Below, one piece after another: positions 1,456 through 20,251 of a stretch of 21,907 nt of DNA. Made by a program: the position numbers and the translations under genes. Where the stretch lies: IMG/VR virus record IMGVR_UViG_2671180847_000012; one strand, written 5' to 3'. Source of the stretch: a virus. Its lineage: Duplodnaviria > Heunggongvirae > Uroviricota > Caudoviricetes. The notes below the pieces were generated by a model that worked only from the letters and a program-made list of their open reading frames with translations, was not told the DNA's origin and made no database searches. Each line of letters begins with the position of its first letter. Position 1 is the first letter of the stretch.

Positions 1456-1531
1456 TGGCTCCTCTGACTGGACTCGAACCAGTGACATACGGATTAACAG
1501 TCCGCCGTTCTACCGACTGAACTACAGAGGA
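1456..1531 (-). tRNA. asnT: tRNA-Asn (anticodon GUU)
   Basis: Reverse complement reads TCCTCTGTAGTTCAGTCGGTAGAACGGCGGACTGTTAATCCGTATGTCACTGGTTCGAGTCCAGTCAGAGGAGCCA, matching E. coli tRNA-Asn as I recall it, with a CUGUUAA anticodon loop. The asnT name is inferred from adjacency to mtfA. Confidence 0.92.
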
Positions 1532-2743: not shown

Positions 2744-3802
2744 TTGAGCATGAATTCATCTAGCGCATTTGCTACGCCTGTTGTTGCCAACAATAGTCAA
2801 CAAGTATTATCTGATTTGATTACTGCGCTTGAGCAGACCAATCTATATTCATTTATTTCTCAGATAGCAACTGTGTATGGATTTCCACCTGTTAAAGGTG
2901 GAATGGATGCGGTTTTGAAGGCAATCGAGGCATCTATACAGAATCCAACAGCTGCATTTCCTAATGCTACATTAAATTCACTTGAGAAAATGATCGATAG
3001 AATAATAATCTCTGGTAGTCACTATTATTCTATTGACGAAACACAAGACCCAAATTTCCAAAGTGTGATCCAACATGTTTTTAGTACAAGTGTAACTGAT
3101 TCAAGGTATGAAAATTCTTATCCAAGAAAGTTATATGATGGTAATTCACTTGGGAACAATATCAAAGGTCTTTATCTGACTAAATTAATTGATACTGGCG
3201 ATGGCTTTGCTTTTATTTTCTCATATGTTTATAGTGTTAAGATTAAGGGAAGTCGCGGTTTAGGACTATCGTATACCCCACAGCAACAATTTATAACAGT
3301 ATTTGTTCCCCATAATAAAAATAGGATCGAGTATCGTCTTCCAAAAAATTTAGGGAAACGGGAGACAGCAAAAGCGCTTGCATCGGTGCGTAATAAATTT
3401 TTTGATATGCTCATCAGTACTAATAATACTATTCATTTCAAACAATTGAATTTTTATAATGTGATCAATAGCATTATTACTGATAGATCGTTCGGGAAAG
3501 CAGTTCAGATAATTTATGTTGGTTCTAATACAGGTTGTGATGCTAATGTCATTGGCCGCAAAGATCCGACATATGAAGCTCGAGATGTCGAGATTACTAA
3601 TAAGAAAAGAAATGATATTTATACACCACGTGCTGTAGCCGTAAGATTTTACAGAAATAATGGTGACTTTACAGAATTGGGTCTAGATCCAAATAAGAAA
3701 TCTTGGTTGGATGATAATTTTTGTGGCGAATTTTATGTTGATTTTCCTGAAGATACAATCTCATTAAATGGTTTAATTGAAAATGTCATCTCACGAAAAT
3801 GA
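2744..3802 (+). CDS. Hypothetical protein, cargo gene A of an att-proximal three-gene operon (no family recognised)
   Basis: 352-aa ORF, markedly AT-rich by eye compared with the flanking host and phage genes; its stop overlaps the start of the next ORF. No motif I can assign. Confidence 0.6.
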   Translation: MSMNSSSAFATPVVANNSQQVLSDLITALEQTNLYSFISQIATVYGFPPVKGGMDAVLKAIEASIQNPTAAFPNATLNSLEKMIDRIIISGSHYYSIDETQDPNFQSVIQHVFSTSVTDSRYENSYPRKLYDGNSLGNNIKGLYLTKLIDTGDGFAFIFSYVYSVKIKGSRGLGLSYTPQQQFITVFVPHNKNRIEYRLPKNLGKRETAKALASVRNKFFDMLISTNNTIHFKQLNFYNVINSIITDRSFGKAVQIIYVGSNTGCDANVIGRKDPTYEARDVEITNKKRNDIYTPRAVAVRFYRNNGDFTELGLDPNKKSWLDDNFCGEFYVDFPEDTISLNGLIENVISRK

Positions 3803-4214
3803 TAGAATCAAGGTCATAATGATGCTTTTGTCTGAACAAAGGATATTATTGGATGAAATGAAAGATATCTTTCCTGAAGAAGATATCTTTCTATTCAATA
3901 ATGTTTTGGATTTCATTCAAAATAATTATGATAAAAATTATTACCCGATTAATGTATTAAGGCAAGCGGCAGGCTGTGAATCGGACTCGGATTTGCTAAA
4001 GTTAGTCCGTTATTTTTGTGGTGCACATTCTAAATTATTTAATATAACTTATTGCTATTATGATTTTGATGGTGAAGAAATCCCTATTTCAGCAGAATGC
4101 TACTATAATGCTCTGATTTGTGATATTTCTCCGATCAGTTTATTGTCTGGGCGCGAAATAGATGATTTCGATGTTAATAACATTTCTTTTTACTGTATAT
4201 TAAATGTCAAATAA
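3783..4214 (+). CDS. Hypothetical small acidic, Cys-rich protein, cargo gene B
   Basis: ORF overlaps the end of gene A and its stop overlaps the start of gene C. Start is ambiguous (TTG 3777, ATG 3783, or ATG 3819); no strong Shine-Dalgarno. Confidence 0.5.
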   Translation: MSSHENDRIKVIMMLLSEQRILLDEMKDIFPEEDIFLFNNVLDFIQNNYDKNYYPINVLRQAAGCESDSDLLKLVRYFCGAHSKLFNITYCYYDFDGEEIPISAECYYNALICDISPISLLSGREIDDFDVNNISFYCILNVK

Positions 4215-5001
4215 TTTTCTTCAAAATATAACACCTGCCGAATTAGCCGCGCTGGTAAACTTGAAGCCATTCGATGAGGATGTGTTTGTACAAAGTCTAT
4301 ATGCCGATATAAATAATGCAATTAAGCATATTGAGAAGACTGCGGATAAATATTATTCAGATGATGAAGATAAGATCACTAATTTACTGGTTTTATTTCT
4401 CAAAGGTGTTGGGTACAACGCATCTGAACAAACAAAATCTAATGGTTCCGTCGATATTACAGTTCAGGATCGTGATCAGAGCTTTACTTGGCTCGCTGAA
4501 GCAAAAAGAGGGAATTCGTATAATGGTGTCTTTGAAGGCATGTTACAGTTAGTAACAAGATATATTTCTGATGAGAAACATGCAGGTTTCTTTATTTACC
4601 ATCAGAAACTTGATTCATTAAGTTACTTTAAAAATTGGTTCAGCTACCTTAGCTCTGGTGATTTTGAAAAATATAAGGCTATTTCTGATAGGCTTGATGA
4701 GTGCCGATATCATTTTAAAAAGAGCCCCATAGCAAATGCGTTTACCGGTGATGAATGTTATTTTGACTACAATATAGTTTCAAAAAAGGGAAAAGAAGTA
4801 AAGGTTAGAAATTTTATTTTAAGTTTGCACTATAACCCTGCGGATAAAAGTGGACGAGAGAATAAATCCTTGAAGGTCGGACAAGCGAAAATTTATGTCA
4901 ATGAAGTGTGTGACAAGTGGTTTCGTGAGCAAGAACCTCCTGAAGATATTGATAAATTCATGAATTCACTACAATTAGTATTCCCTGAACTATTTGAATA
5001 A
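4204..5001 (+). CDS. Hypothetical protein, cargo gene C; possible PD-(D/E)xK-type nuclease
   Basis: 265-aa ORF overlapping the stop of gene B. Contains SVDITV followed about 15 residues later by WLAEAK, a spacing resembling the D...ExK nuclease core; this is a motif-level inference only. Confidence 0.55.
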   Translation: MSNNFLQNITPAELAALVNLKPFDEDVFVQSLYADINNAIKHIEKTADKYYSDDEDKITNLLVLFLKGVGYNASEQTKSNGSVDITVQDRDQSFTWLAEAKRGNSYNGVFEGMLQLVTRYISDEKHAGFFIYHQKLDSLSYFKNWFSYLSSGDFEKYKAISDRLDECRYHFKKSPIANAFTGDECYFDYNIVSKKGKEVKVRNFILSLHYNPADKSGRENKSLKVGQAKIYVNEVCDKWFREQEPPEDIDKFMNSLQLVFPELFE

Positions 5002-8420: not shown

Positions 8421-8783
8421 TTAATGACCTGCTGCGCGGAGTTTTCCGTCAGGTTCACCGGCAAGAGTCAGTAATTGTCCCTGGTCTTCCTGCAGAATAG
8501 TCAGGCGACCACCGCGATTGACATACATCGGCGTTTCGGTGGTGTCTTCTTCGGAAATTTTCCCGCGGTTAGTCGGGCGAACATATGAGAGTTTGTGTTT
8601 GATTTTCACACGGTTCTCATCAAACGGTTCGATTTCCAGATTGAGTGAGACCTTCCCTTTGGTTTTCGTGTTCATCACACCGGAAGCGACTTCACTGAGA
8701 ACTGCGCCGATTTTGGTTTCAAATACGCCGCCGTCCAGCTCCCCGATAAATGCCTGCACATCAGTACTGCGTTCGCTAGCCAT
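8421..8783 (-). CDS. YfdP-like small phage protein
   Basis: Start placed at ATG 8783, which is preceded by GAGGAG. The ORF-track extension up to 9101 has non-protein-like composition and no ribosome-binding site. Confidence 0.6.
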   Translation of the reverse strand: MASERSTDVQAFIGELDGGVFETKIGAVLSEVASGVMNTKTKGKVSLNLEIEPFDENRVKIKHKLSYVRPTNRGKISEEDTTETPMYVNRGGRLTILQEDQGQLLTLAGEPDGKLRAAGH

Positions 8784-9251
8784 TTTGCTGCTCCTCATCA
8801 TATCGACCCTGCAAGGTCGGTTAGTTTCTCCACAAAACAGAGAAGAACACCTGCGGTGACTGCCGCCCGGATGGATTGGGTTATGAGCCCGTCGTCCGGT
8901 GATGCTCTTCTCTGTTTTGTAAAAAGGACGGTACCAGCCGGAAGCAAGGGTACAAGCTGGTACCTCCAGGACTACACACAGCATAAAGTTGTGGTGCCGG
9001 GTGCCTCCCGGTGCCTGGCGAAGGTTGCACACCAGGCGGGTGGGTATCCACAGAAGGTCGACTGTCAGCCTCAACCTTAACCCGCGTGCGCTGAGCCGCA
9101 TTCACCACAACGCTAAGGATTCTCTCTGGTTGAAAATACTTAGCTGTTATGTGCCTGCTTTTAGCCACATCAGGCGAGGTGGACCTGGTTATTCCCCAAC
9201 AACAAGGATTCGGTTAATCTGGTTATCCCCAACAACGCAAAAGGAAAAGAA

Positions 9252-9686
9252 ATGTCCGGTAATATCTATACGCTGTACAAATCCCACTGTGAAAATGTTG
9301 GAAAGTATCGGGGCATTGAAATCAGTGGGGTAGTGTCATCAGTCGAAATAAGCAAAGTTGAATCAAGGGCAACATTACTTACTCTTTTGGACCTTGTCTT
9401 ACATGAGCACCGGAAGAAATTCGGCACTCCCTATAATCAGTTGAATGGGAAAAAGGCTCTGGTTCACCTTATTCTGATGAAGCATCACTGGATGCCAAAA
9501 CAGATTAATGAGATGAAATTTGATGAACTTCTTCTTTCAATTCAGGATGAACTCACACTTGATAAAATAAGCGTAACCGCCCAGAAATTTTTAGATTATC
9601 GAGACTGGAGATCACAAATTCATCACTTTGATGATTTTGACGAAAATGAATGGGATCCTAATTTGTCTGCACAATATCTAAAGTAA
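9252..9686 (+). CDS. Hypothetical protein; counter-oriented moron gene in the PL-side region
   Basis: 144-aa ORF, AT-rich by eye, on the opposite strand to the surrounding early-left genes; preceded by two direct repeats and a GGA-containing ribosome-binding site; an intrinsic terminator follows at 9923-9946. Confidence 0.55.
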   Translation: MSGNIYTLYKSHCENVGKYRGIEISGVVSSVEISKVESRATLLTLLDLVLHEHRKKFGTPYNQLNGKKALVHLILMKHHWMPKQINEMKFDELLLSIQDELTLDKISVTAQKFLDYRDWRSQIHHFDDFDENEWDPNLSAQYLK

Positions 9687-9864
9687 CATCCTGTGATAAA
9701 ACCGTGATTTCCTGATCCAGTTTTTTTAAGGAGTCTATTGTTTCCTGTCGATAAGACAGCACTTCACGAAGCTGGTTTATAGCTGCCAGCTTCTTTGTCA
9801 TCCACTCATAAATTTCCTCATCTGTGTAGCCAGGCGCGACGATTTTGGGTTCTGTTTTGTGCAT
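9658..9864 (-). CDS. Hypothetical small protein, first gene downstream of the putative PL
   Basis: 68-aa ORF from ATG 9864 with GAGGAG 7 nt upstream; predicted coiled-coil-like composition. Not arginine-rich, so not an obvious N-type antiterminator. Confidence 0.45.
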   Translation of the reverse strand: MHKTEPKIVAPGYTDEEIYEWMTKKLAAINQLREVLSYRQETIDSLKKLDQEITVLSQDVTLDIVQTN

Positions 9865-9922
9865 TTCACATCTCCTCAAGTTATCAGTTACTTGTTGATG
9901 GGGACCAGATTGTTAAAGAGCT

Positions 9923-9946
9923 AAGCGTCCTGTAGGGCGCTTTTTT
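9923..9946 (+). terminator. Rho-independent terminator for the rightward moron transcript
   Basis: GC-rich stem GCGTCC/GGGCGC (one G-U pair) with a TGTA loop, followed by TTTTTT; only valid in the + orientation. Confidence 0.6.
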
Positions 9947-10029
9947 GTTGCTAACGAATCATCCTGGACTTCATATGCCCCAGGCGGCTACTTCGTGGGC
10001 GTCCTGCCTGTTCGTTATCTTTGATATAA

Positions 10030-10058
10030 AATCTAACTTAACTTAGTTATTATGGCAA
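10030..10058 (-). promoter_or_regulatory. Candidate PL promoter with overlapping operator
   Basis: On the minus strand: TTGCCA, 17-nt spacer, TAGATT. The spacer contains CTAACTTAACTTAG (10033-10046), which matches the CTAA-N6-TTAG motif also found at OR. Confidence 0.35.
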
Positions 10059-10111
10059 GAGAAAACACCAAACTTTTCTTAGTTCGGTGCCTTAGTTAGA
10101 GAAGAGAGGTC

Positions 10112-10738
10112 TTAGAGTTCGTATTGAACTCCTTTGACTACACCAATGATAAGGCAATTACCATTGATAGGGATGTTGGGATACCGAGGATTTAATGGCA
10201 CTAAAAACTTTTGAGGGCCATCGATGACTAATTTTTTTACTGTAGCTTCGTTTGTTCCATCAAGTCGAGCGATGACTATTTTTCCATGACGAGGTTCTGC
10301 ATCTGGATCTACAATCACTGTTGCGCCTTCTGGTATTGTTGGGAGGCCATTAGGGTTAGTCATGGAGTCACCTTTAACCTCTAATGCAAATGAGTTATCA
10401 CCAATCTTTAATGATGTATCTACCCACTTGTCCACTTCACTAAACACTTCTGCTGCCCTGCACTCAGTAAACTGCCCAGCCTGAACCCACGATATTACAG
10501 GAACTCTGCGCATGTTTGTGACGAGTTTGCCTTCAAACTCAGCACCATAAAGAATGTAATCTATTGACGTATTGAAGAACTTCGCTAATTTCGAAAGTGC
10601 CTCCCCACCAGGGGTATTGATGTCTTTCTCCCAGTACCCCACAGCAACGTCGCTTACTCCACAAAATTTACCCAATTCTTTCTGGGACGTTCCGGTAACT
10701 CTTCTCAGAGCTTTTATACGCTGACCAACCGTTTCCAT
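10112..10738 (-). CDS. CI-like prophage repressor (HTH domain plus LexA-type S24 peptidase domain)
   Basis: N-terminal HTH (QKELGKFCGVSDVAVGYWEK) and C-terminal S24-like autopeptidase region (GDSMTNP...KKL); divergent from a Cro-like gene. Confidence 0.9.
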   Translation of the reverse strand: METVGQRIKALRRVTGTSQKELGKFCGVSDVAVGYWEKDINTPGGEALSKLAKFFNTSIDYILYGAEFEGKLVTNMRRVPVISWVQAGQFTECRAAEVFSEVDKWVDTSLKIGDNSFALEVKGDSMTNPNGLPTIPEGATVIVDPDAEPRHGKIVIARLDGTNEATVKKLVIDGPQKFLVPLNPRYPNIPINGNCLIIGVVKGVQYEL

Positions 10739-10835: not shown

Positions 10836-11036
10836 ATGACAACTGACGATATCGAAAGCTACTTCGGCAGTATTGAGAAAGTTGCTGCTTTTTTCGGCAT
10901 AACAACTGAAGCCGTTTATCAGTGGCGAAACCGTCCGGGCCAGTTAATTCCAAAAGGACGTGCAGCAGAAGCTGCATATAGAACTTGCGGACGGTTGCCA
11001 TTTAAACCTGAGCTTTATGAAAAATCTAATGGATAA
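10836..11036 (+). CDS. Cro-like / YdaS-type HTH regulator
   Basis: 66-aa ORF divergent from the repressor gene, with an HTH-like segment (VAAFFGITTEAVYQWRNR). Confidence 0.75.
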   Translation: MTTDDIESYFGSIEKVAAFFGITTEAVYQWRNRPGQLIPKGRAAEAAYRTCGRLPFKPELYEKSNG

Positions 11037-19303: not shown

Positions 19304-19654
19304 ATGACTCAAAACTATGAACTGATTGTGAAAGGGATCCGCAATTTTGAGAATAAAGTTACGGTAACTTTAGCGTTACGGGACAAAAAACGTTTTGACG
19401 GTGAAATTTTTGACCTGGACATCTCGCTGGACCGTGTTGAAGGTGCCGCGCTGGAGGTTTATGAGGCAGCAGCCAGAAGGAGCATCAGACAGGTCTTCCT
19501 GGATGTTGCTGCCGGGTTATGTGAAGGGGATGAGCAGTCGCCGGAAAAGCGCCCCGTAATTTTAGATGCGCAGAATGTTTGGATAACCTACAAAGGAAAG
19601 CTACCAGGAAGAATTACTGGTTCTCTGAAGACTCCTCCGGAATCACAACCTTAA
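19304..19654 (+). CDS. Hypothetical protein inserted between holin and endolysin
   Basis: 116-aa ORF with GGAGAG Shine-Dalgarno; no recognisable motif. Confidence 0.55.
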   Translation: MTQNYELIVKGIRNFENKVTVTLALRDKKRFDGEIFDLDISLDRVEGAALEVYEAAARRSIRQVFLDVAAGLCEGDEQSPEKRPVILDAQNVWITYKGKLPGRITGSLKTPPESQP

Positions 19655-19717
19655 GTCACTGACCGGAACAGATAAACCTGTCCGTGGGCAGAAACCGATA
19701 AATCCTGATAAATATCC

Positions 19718-20251
19718 ATGAACGCAAAAATCAGATACGGCCTGTCGGCTGCCGTTCTGGCACTGATTGCCGTCGGTGCGCCCGCGCCTGATATTCTCGA
19801 CCAGTTTCTGGATGAAAAAGAAGGTAACCACACAACGGCATACCGCGATGGGTCCGGCATCTGGACCATCTGTCGGGGTGCCACGATGGTGGATGGAAAA
19901 CCCGTTTTTCCCGGTATGAAACTGTCGAAGGAAAAATGCGACCAGGTCAACGCCATTGAGCGTGATAAGGCGCTGGCATGGGTGGAGCGCAATATTAAAG
20001 TACCACTGACCGAGCCACAAAAAGCGGGTATCGCGTCATTTTGTCCCTATAACATTGGCCCCGGTAAGTGTTTTCCGTCGACGTTTTATAAGCGGCTGAA
20101 TGCTGGTGATCGTAAAGGTGCATGCGAGGCGATTCGCTGGTGGATAAAAGATGGTGGGCGCGATTGCCGCATACGTTCAAATAACTGCTATGGACAGGTT
20201 ATTCGTCGTGACCAGGAAAGCGCATTAGCCTGTTGGGGGATAGATCAGTGA
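19718..20251 (+). CDS. SAR endolysin (lysozyme with N-terminal signal-anchor-release domain)
   Basis: Gly/Ala-rich weakly hydrophobic N-terminus ([16 protein letters not shown]) followed by a lysozyme-type catalytic region (E...D...T pattern: [20 protein letters not shown]); pairs naturally with a pinholin. Confidence 0.85.

Follow-up and report, generated by a model that had tools for sequence, protein, structure and literature searches.

A conserved slot next to PL in lambdoid prophages: interchangeable cargo and a convergent ECs1072/YdfC-like gene pair

The subject of this analysis is a counter-oriented gene close to the early-left promoter (PL) of a prophage sequence from IMG/VR (record IMGVR_UViG_2671180847_000012, 21,907 nucleotides, called the window below). 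Our data support the view that the region around this gene, 9183-9952, is a cargo cassette, or moron, in a conserved slot: the cassette is present in some prophages and replaced in others, and it has a terminator of its own. The slot lies between the PL leader and an STnc100-like RNA with yfdP, in lambdoid prophages of the SfV/SfIV/CPS-53-like kind. Morons, as the concept was developed for phages HK97 and HK022, are extra genes with their own promoter and terminator that sit between backbone genes. We favour, with modest confidence, the reading that the cassette consists of a reusable frame (a left element with repeat 1 and the left arm of an inverted repeat, IR-L; the right arm, IR-R; a boxA on the strand transcribed from PL; and a one-way terminator on the + strand) and that this frame carries a two-gene cargo, an ECs1072-family gene and a convergent YdfC-like gene (Table 1). 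The observations behind this reading are the anatomy of the region, the families of its two proteins, the conservation of the pair, the interchange and orientation of cargo, the terminator's strand asymmetry and co-varying inverted-repeat arms. An earlier, sequence-only reading of the same DNA had proposed a counter-oriented moron gene with upstream direct repeats and its own terminator, running antisense to the start of the early-left operon; as a whole, this interpretation is partly supported.

Table 1. Features of the cassette and of its surroundings, with their positions in the window
Feature	Position	Strand	Remark
ECs1072-family gene, 144 amino acids (aa)	9252-9686	+	against the direction of the PL operon
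YdfC-like small gene, 68 aa from ATG	9658-9864	-	first open reading frame (ORF) downstream of PL
Repeat 1 (CTGGTTATTCCCCAACAACAAG)	9185-9206	+	constant part of left frame; almost invariant across all cargo types (alignment A6)
Repeat 2 = IR-L (AATCTGGTTATCCCCAACAAC)	9216-9236	+	15 nucleotides (nt) upstream of ATG; left arm of cargo-bracketing inverted repeat (pair I3)
IR-R (AATCTGGTCCCCATCAACAAG on - strand)	9891-9911	-	upstream of the ribosome-binding site (RBS) of the small gene (pairs I3, I4)
boxA (GCTCTTTAACAA; GCUCUUUAACAA on PL-strand RNA)	9921-9910	-	12/12 positions of rrn boxA consensus GCUCUUUAACAA
Frame terminator: 8-bp hairpin with U-G pair, then T-run	9923-9948 (hairpin 9923-9942)	+	strong on + strand only
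Internal hairpin, 9-bp stem, with U-rich tail	9768-9803 (hairpin 9768-9793)	+	inside small gene
TGGGATCCTA = degenerate copy of palindrome TGGGATCCCA	9651-9660		
PL leader, conserved	9953..10022	-	backbone, common to SfV (alignment A7); right boundary of cassette
PL-like promoter TTGCCA-17-TAGATT	10058 to 10030	-	inside operator-like repeats 10023-10084 (repeat family D1)
Repressor gene	10112-10738	-	HTH_3 + Peptidase_S24
cro	10836-11036	+	
STnc100/PasD-like structured RNA	8918-9141	-	backbone; directly downstream of cassette in PL direction

Frame and interchangeable cargo

The full cassette is present in 408 of 5,426 complete E. coli genomes, where the ORF is kept as a unit with its repeats and terminator; the loss of this unit in relatives, which the sequence-only reading had named as a ground for refutation, is thus not what the genomes show. 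NZ_CP103672 (ST131) is one strain with an identical cassette. In about 700 further complete E. coli genomes the two frame pieces alone are present and enclose other DNA, and over 1,100 of the 5,426 contain the slot. Five annotated examples with other cargo (L104-L108) each carry one + strand hypothetical gene of 159-171 aa; they share their flanks with the window, as do SfV and PhiR29_1, and differ from it in cargo. Homology to SfV ends at about 9182 on the left and picks up again at 9953 on the right, and the GC content of the cassette (0.33-0.43, against 0.53-0.58 in the left flank) agrees with the AT-richness noted before. SfV itself has neither the repeats nor the boxA nor the terminator; its slot holds another pair of convergent genes that overlap, namely an 81-aa ORF without annotation (3122-3367, +; phrog_3311) and orf33 (3285-3581, -; phrog_3195). 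The SfV record also annotates a - strand terminator, 3102-3134, that spans the start of the 81-aa ORF.

A survey of frames, in which a left-anchor scan of IMG/VR with repeat 1 was combined with other loci, brought together 84 distinct sequences, which fall into 24 k-mer clusters. The cargo consists of the ECs1072 gene with its partner in 5 clusters, of a 155-181-aa protein with the motif MIAEL..AAM..IKET (phrog_1244) in about 11, of a membrane protein (phrog_6315) in 4 and of a signal-peptide protein of about 170 aa (phrog_7681) in 2, besides a 167-aa protein (phrog_3983) and a 75-aa ORF. No known function was found among these groups, which make up six protein families or so. The main ORF runs against PL, on the + strand, in all clusters but one (23 of 24); in cluster 16 the only ORF above the length cut-off is on the - strand. 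The variability among co-linear prophages, with SfV devoid of the cassette and about 24 cargo clusters in the same frame, bears out the earlier proposal of a counter-oriented accessory cassette with its own terminator.

The two direct repeats that had been described upstream of the 144-aa ORF (CTGGTTATTCCCCAACAAC at 9185-9203 and CTGGTTATCCCCAACAAC at 9219-9236, a 1-nt indel apart) are indeed there, and a gapped motif search found no such match in 100 shuffles. They are, however, not a simple operator pair, since repeat 2 is the left arm of a co-varying inverted repeat that brackets the cargo. A third, inverted copy, overlooked in the sequence-only reading, immediately precedes the 68-aa gene, at 9891-9911, and the right side of the frame runs, in order, IR-R, GTTAAAGAGC (boxA on the - strand) and terminator. 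Operators for cI were considered for the repeats and rejected, the frame being constant across at least three different repressor types. A DnaA-box-like TTATCCCCA inside repeat 2 was noticed by eye.

The arms of the inverted repeat vary with the type of cargo and agree within each type. Both read AATCTGGATGACT in clusters 2 and 6, AATCTT... in cluster 3, AATCTGAAT... in cluster 21 and GTAACCCTC in cluster 22, and an A/T switch between L129 and L134 is present in both arms. Duplexes between cognate arms have a mean energy of -24.9 kcal/mol, compared with -20.5 kcal/mol for non-cognate arms, and none of 20,000 permutations matched the sum observed for cognate arms (p ~5e-5). In 18 of 24 cases the - strand RNA forms the slightly stabler duplex (Wilcoxon p = 0.016), a preference that is only suggestive because the sequences are related.

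These arms could also be seen in another light, as DNA: the inverted repeat and the frame would then be a relic of a palindromic site used for insertion or recombination, or terminal inverted repeats belonging to a small mobile cassette, and the boxA would be incidental. Such an origin would account for the finding that every cargo sits between AATCTGGATATCC...GGATATCCAGATT-like arms, which would form a perfect palindrome centred on GATATC if joined, for the identical outer junctions of the roughly 24 cargo clusters, and for inner arm sequences that travel with the cargo. Yet IMG/VR yielded no empty frame, with the arms joined without cargo, when searched at spacings of 20-50 nt and of 50-80 nt, and there is no recombinase or transposase in or beside the cassette. 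The matched changes by which the arms stay complementary (L129 versus L134; clusters 3, 21 and 22) would be unexpected for neutral ends, the duplex is slightly favoured as - strand RNA, and the boxA core is kept in L100 and L103 amid diverged neighbours. We therefore consider a pure DNA site quite unlikely.

The + strand intrinsic terminator named in the sequence-only reading, at 9923-9946, is real and of textbook form, a hairpin followed by a T-run, but it belongs to the frame and not to the ECs1072 gene, whose transcript had been expected to end there. The hairpin at 9768-9793 (-17.1 kcal/mol, z = -3.66), overlooked before, is from its sequence probably the first terminator of the ECs1072 mRNA; it is kept in L101, L102 and L202 with another loop and a better U-run. 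In the frame terminator, a conserved U-G pair becomes a C-A mismatch on the - strand, and the hairpin is more stable on the + strand in all 30 distinct variants (mean -10.9 versus -6.6 kcal/mol). At least four T follow it in 28 of the 30, and 27 of these have runs of 5-7 T. On account of this asymmetry, the terminator is expected to block rightward transcription and to be weak against transcription from PL.

A scan for boxA with at most one mismatch gave one match, compared with 0.14 expected per window, and this match, too, had been overlooked. It lies about 100 nt into the PL transcript, with the start of the small gene about 45 nt further on, and, judged by consensus, transcribed strand and position near the 5' end of a poorly translated transcript, it is a boxA of the rrn type. 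The core GCTCTTTAA is retained despite diverged flanks in the window, L101, L103, L100 and PhiR29_1 (alignment A7); in the wider survey the core served as a search anchor, and its presence there is by construction. Because SfV has no boxA, we assign the element to the cassette frame and not to the backbone. A nutL site of the N type was considered and rejected, as there is no N-like arginine-rich protein and no boxB, and the only nearby hairpin is 5' of boxA. boxA recruits NusB/NusE and can block Rho-dependent termination (PMC12360218); any effect in the window could go in either direction.

The ECs1072 gene and its convergent partner

The 144-aa ORF encodes a bona fide member of the ECs1072 family, which is named but uncharacterised and widespread in prophages. 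It matches the NCBIfam model NF033230 with 157.8 bits, against a curated cutoff of 70 (E 1.7e-46; residues 4-144 on profile positions 2-142 of 142), and phrog_5286 with E 1.5e-90 over positions 1-144 of 144. The AF2 model is all-helical and confident (pLDDT 90.4), and the protein is predicted from sequence and model to be soluble and helical. The family comprises 120 cluster representatives at 50% identity, mostly of 130-175 aa, the shorter ones being partial. A profile search of 1.84 billion representatives returned stand-alone proteins only, with no second domain or informative fusion, and a first scan of IMG/VR with the same profile returned only identical copies and added no diversity. Three fold searches found no significant structural relative. 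Scans with PADLOC, Pfam and NCBIfam yielded nothing on function beyond the family name; the protein matches no PADLOC model for defence or toxin-antitoxin systems and has no toxin-like fold. Going by position and orientation, our best guess is a benefit to the lysogen, for example superinfection exclusion or defence. The name-giving ECs1072 is included in a list of growth-phase-regulated genes from a microarray study of an O157 Sakai lysogen (PMC2241611).

The 144-aa and 68-aa ORFs and their antisense overlap, which is a 3' overlap of 29 nt, are present as described in the sequence-only reading. That reading had taken the 68-aa ORF for the first leftward gene. It is indeed the first ORF after PL, but it is not a plain backbone gene: comparison of loci identifies it as cargo, a conserved partner that moves with ECs1072 genes, because it is convergent with them in 12 of 14 loci at two clear prophage positions. 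The protein (73 aa if counted from an upstream TTG) matches phrog_1744 with E 6e-35 and no curated Pfam or NCBIfam model. By tblastn, its residues 1-66 share 39-41% identity with YdfC (E 2e-9 to 3e-9, genes annotated as ydfC or YdfC family), and we call it YdfC-like on the basis of this significant similarity over most of its length. The AF2 model is a single long helix, residues 15-67; the protein has no arginine-rich N-terminus, and only 2 of its 68 residues are arginine. The searches that the sequence-only reading had suggested led, for the 144-aa protein, to the ECs1072 family without a fold relative and, for the 68-aa protein, to YdfC. The function of YdfC itself is unknown (PMC5069750).

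The pairing was surveyed in 14 distinct ECs1072 loci. Twelve have a convergent gene of 67-86 aa on the phage-operon strand, with a 3' overlap of 29-95 nt. Seven of these pairs are in the gap between Q and the holin gene (Salmonella ST64B, Klebsiella, E. coli, Proteus, Serratia, Photorhabdus and Providencia) and five are proximal to PL (window, L101, L102/L103, L202 and L140). Annotation is uneven, the ECs1072 gene being unannotated in ST64B and the partner in SfIV. Partners from the late-operon and the PL-proximal sites are homologous (hhalign, 90% probability, E 1.6e-6), and consecutive locus tags place the two genes next to each other in three further genomes. In prophage Sp4 of Sakai (L099), ECs1072, now ECs_5703 (19361-19816, -), is counter-oriented between cII-like and O-like genes, which is a third prophage position; the ORF opposite to it opens with a partner-like motif. 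In the late-operon locus L094, the module lies between direct repeats, CCTCCAGAAACG(T/C)AAAAGCCCCG, at about 2868-2895 and about 3632-3660. They are two copies of a - strand segment of terminator plus RBS and may be an insertion scar.

At several late-operon loci (L005 3247, L006 3247, L094 3406) the palindrome TGGGATCCCA codes for W-D-P in both convergent proteins. The window has TGGGATCCTA instead, and the tryptophan codon of the partner is therefore a TAG stop, giving a product of 68 aa and not about 85. The partner gene of the E. albertii relative L101 (1070-1312, -) matches that of the window as far as about residue 50; the divergence beyond is consistent with a frameshift. In the window's subfamily the C-terminal half of the partner seems to be poorly constrained.

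Prophage context

The window is an SfV/SfIV/CPS-53-like lambdoid prophage. Shigella phage SfIV and Escherichia phages Kati, 569R4 and 689R6 are 98-100% identical to it over 9100-10000, and it shares with SfV the gene order xis, yfdR-like, yfdQ (DUF2303), yfdP-like, followed by the immunity region. Given the position and strand of the PL-like promoter, leftward transcription would come into the cassette region from the right. Folding of the PL leader gave no structure that beats shuffled sequence (z = -0.19). No terminator-like site was seen behind the repressor gene at 10030-10112, and so repressor transcripts might extend into frame and small gene. In SfV, by contrast, the cI-PL interval contains a clear site of this kind. 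Two tRNA genes near the left end of the window (1459-1531, -, and 2523-2609, +; 72.6 and 57 bits) may mark the prophage boundary or integration site.

The structured RNA to the left of the cassette matches STnc100 (RF02076) over the full model length with 38.4 bits (E 1.9e-6). As this is below the gathering score of 47, although relatives at the equivalent position after ECs1072 modules pass it (L006 with 108 bits, L094 with 79 bits), the RNA of the window is labelled STnc100/PasD-like and not a member of STnc100. The STnc100 family has been reported to be prophage-associated (bioRxiv 10.64898/2026.05.13.724894). In the Qin-like phage PPompW_EH2246 (L007), an STnc100-like match (38.7 bits, 4244-4453, +) abuts the 3' end of DicF (4195-4246), downstream of ydfC and upstream of dicB. 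In the window, a 226-aa ORF that reaches into the STnc100-like RNA (8421-9101, -) is a coding sequence in the SfIV and Kati annotations, and PGAP labels the stretch "frameshifted hypothetical" in L104, L105 and L108. The ORF is probably over-extended, the true yfdP-like gene being 8421-8783 (120 aa, phrog_204) and the extra N-terminus the GC-rich STnc100-like RNA read as protein.

Proposed working and comparison with known systems

Our preferred reading suggests the following working of the cassette. In the lysogen, PL would be repressed, and a promoter in the left frame, weak or off-consensus, would drive rightward transcription of the ECs1072 gene; the conservation of the left frame and the uniform orientation of the cargo suggest that a cargo promoter exists. 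The transcript would halt at the internal hairpin near 9800, with the frame terminator as a back-stop, and the two stops together would keep antisense transcription off PL/OL and cI. Upon induction or infection, transcripts from PL would cross the frame terminator in its weak direction and reach boxA about 100 nt from their start, which may load NusB/NusE and could shield the RNA from Rho. The presumably untranslated stretch ahead of yfdP would include about 470 nt of antisense cargo and about 470 nt of non-coding sequence with the STnc100-like RNA, and Rho-resistant elongation across the untranslated cargo would be a rationale for a boxA borne by the cassette rather than by the backbone. Transcripts from PL would also yield the YdfC-like helix protein, and convergent transcription together with pairing of the 3' ends would silence ECs1072 during lytic growth. 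Our best guess for the small partner is a lytic-phase antagonist or modulator.

Several points speak against this model. There is no sigma-70 consensus promoter on the + strand between 9100 and 9252, the promoter-like matches of the region are at chance level, and reading both strands of the left frame by hand gave no convincing promoter. A boxA near an RBS may promote Rho termination and repress translation instead, as in suhB (PMC12360218). The pairing has gaps: L100 carries an ECs1072 gene without a partner, and the opposite-strand ORF of Sakai Sp4 has no significant match to the partner family (hhalign probability 5.7%). Finally, the partner's C-terminal half is cut off in the window and frameshifted in L101, which weakens the idea of an obligatory antagonist.

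Another possibility is that the pair is a toxin/antidote or abortive-infection module, in which ECs1072 would inhibit growth or phage, the helix protein or the mRNA overlap would neutralise it, and the convergent overlap would be the regulatory core. In different genera and at different genomic positions the pair is strictly conserved, convergent and overlapping at its 3' ends. Both proteins are predicted to be soluble and acidic, the predicted single long helix of the partner could serve as a binding peptide, and at some loci one palindrome supplies the W-D-P motif of both proteins. However, L100 has an ECs1072 gene without a partner. The C-terminus of the partner is cut by TAG in the window and frameshifted in L101, which would hardly be tolerated if the toxin were active; classical type II pairs are co-directional and co-transcribed, and neither a PADLOC match to defence or toxin-antitoxin models nor a toxin-like fold was found. 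We consider this explanation unlikely.

Very unlikely, in our view, is a role of ECs1072 as a regulator of the lytic cycle (timing or host take-over) and not as a lysogen moron, with the counter-orientation delaying or limiting its expression. The sites of the gene are always beside the main regulated promoters, namely downstream of PL, behind Q/PR' or, in Sakai, in the cII-O interval, and no constitutive promoter is visible, but the gene is dispensable and replaceable, with SfV and hundreds of prophages having other cargo in the slot. Moreover, counter-orientation within strong lytic operons would suppress lytic expression rather than favour it, and the frame terminator points away from the lytic operon.

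A bolder version of the frame-and-cargo reading, which we regard as rather improbable, holds that the frame is a dedicated adaptor for backwards-facing cargo in an essential early operon and that the ECs1072/YdfC-like pair is a new prophage exclusion system. The devices of the adaptor would be a one-way terminator shielding PL and cI, an anti-Rho boxA, and a long-range helix with co-varying arms, by which the cargo region is looped out or processed; the lytic-strand partner and convergent transcription would give the phage self-immunity on induction.

Whatever the working of the cassette, prophage hotspots have been fertile ground for finding new genes of defence and lysogenic conversion, and this slot holds at least six uncharacterised protein families, all in the same direction. 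The ECs1072/YdfC-like pair is widespread in Enterobacterales prophages and provides a first genomic handle on YdfC of E. coli K-12. Provided that the boxA and the bracketing helix do function, they would illustrate how an essential phage operon can stay in operation with antisense cargo inserted into it, a candidate design rule for morons that is apparently undescribed.

The cassette resembles lambdoid morons in being accessory, AT-rich, variably present and counter-oriented, and in having its own factor-independent terminator. It differs from them in that its slot is a conserved frame, common to about 24 cargo clusters, with co-varying inverted-repeat arms, a boxA on the strand of the host operon and a strand-asymmetric terminator, and in that no consensus promoter was found for it. 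The match to the ECs1072 family (NF033230) is full-length, whereas the invariable counter-orientation and the convergent partner are absent from the annotation of the records examined. On the YdfC side, the dicBF operon of prophage Qin in E. coli K-12 also has a small promoter-proximal gene in an operon of the early-left type, upstream of a structured small-RNA region: ydfC is upstream of DicF, and there is an STnc100-like match in PPompW. Unlike the window, Qin-type operons have no ECs1072 gene opposite ydfC.

Exclusion genes at PL or in the immunity region are known from lambda (rexAB) and from P22 (sieB, with esc and the antisense RNA sas), where antisense or self-immunity control is found. 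The ECs1072 gene shares with rexAB and sieB the early-left/immunity neighbourhood, a presumed PL-independent expression in the lysogen, and opposite-strand transcription as a possible switch; unlike them, it encodes a protein that is predicted to be soluble and not in the membrane, without similarity in sequence or fold to any defence model. As in rrn operons and lambda nut sites, the boxA, an exact match to the rrn consensus, precedes a long stretch that is largely untranslated on the PL strand. In contrast to lambda nut, the region lacks an N-like protein and, after boxA, a boxB with a GNRA-like loop; the hairpin is upstream of boxA. Set against these systems, three features appear to be new: the obligate-looking pairing of ECs1072 and YdfC-like genes; a frame that takes many cargos and is bracketed by co-varying arms; and the joint presence of a one-way terminator and a boxA that the cassette itself carries.

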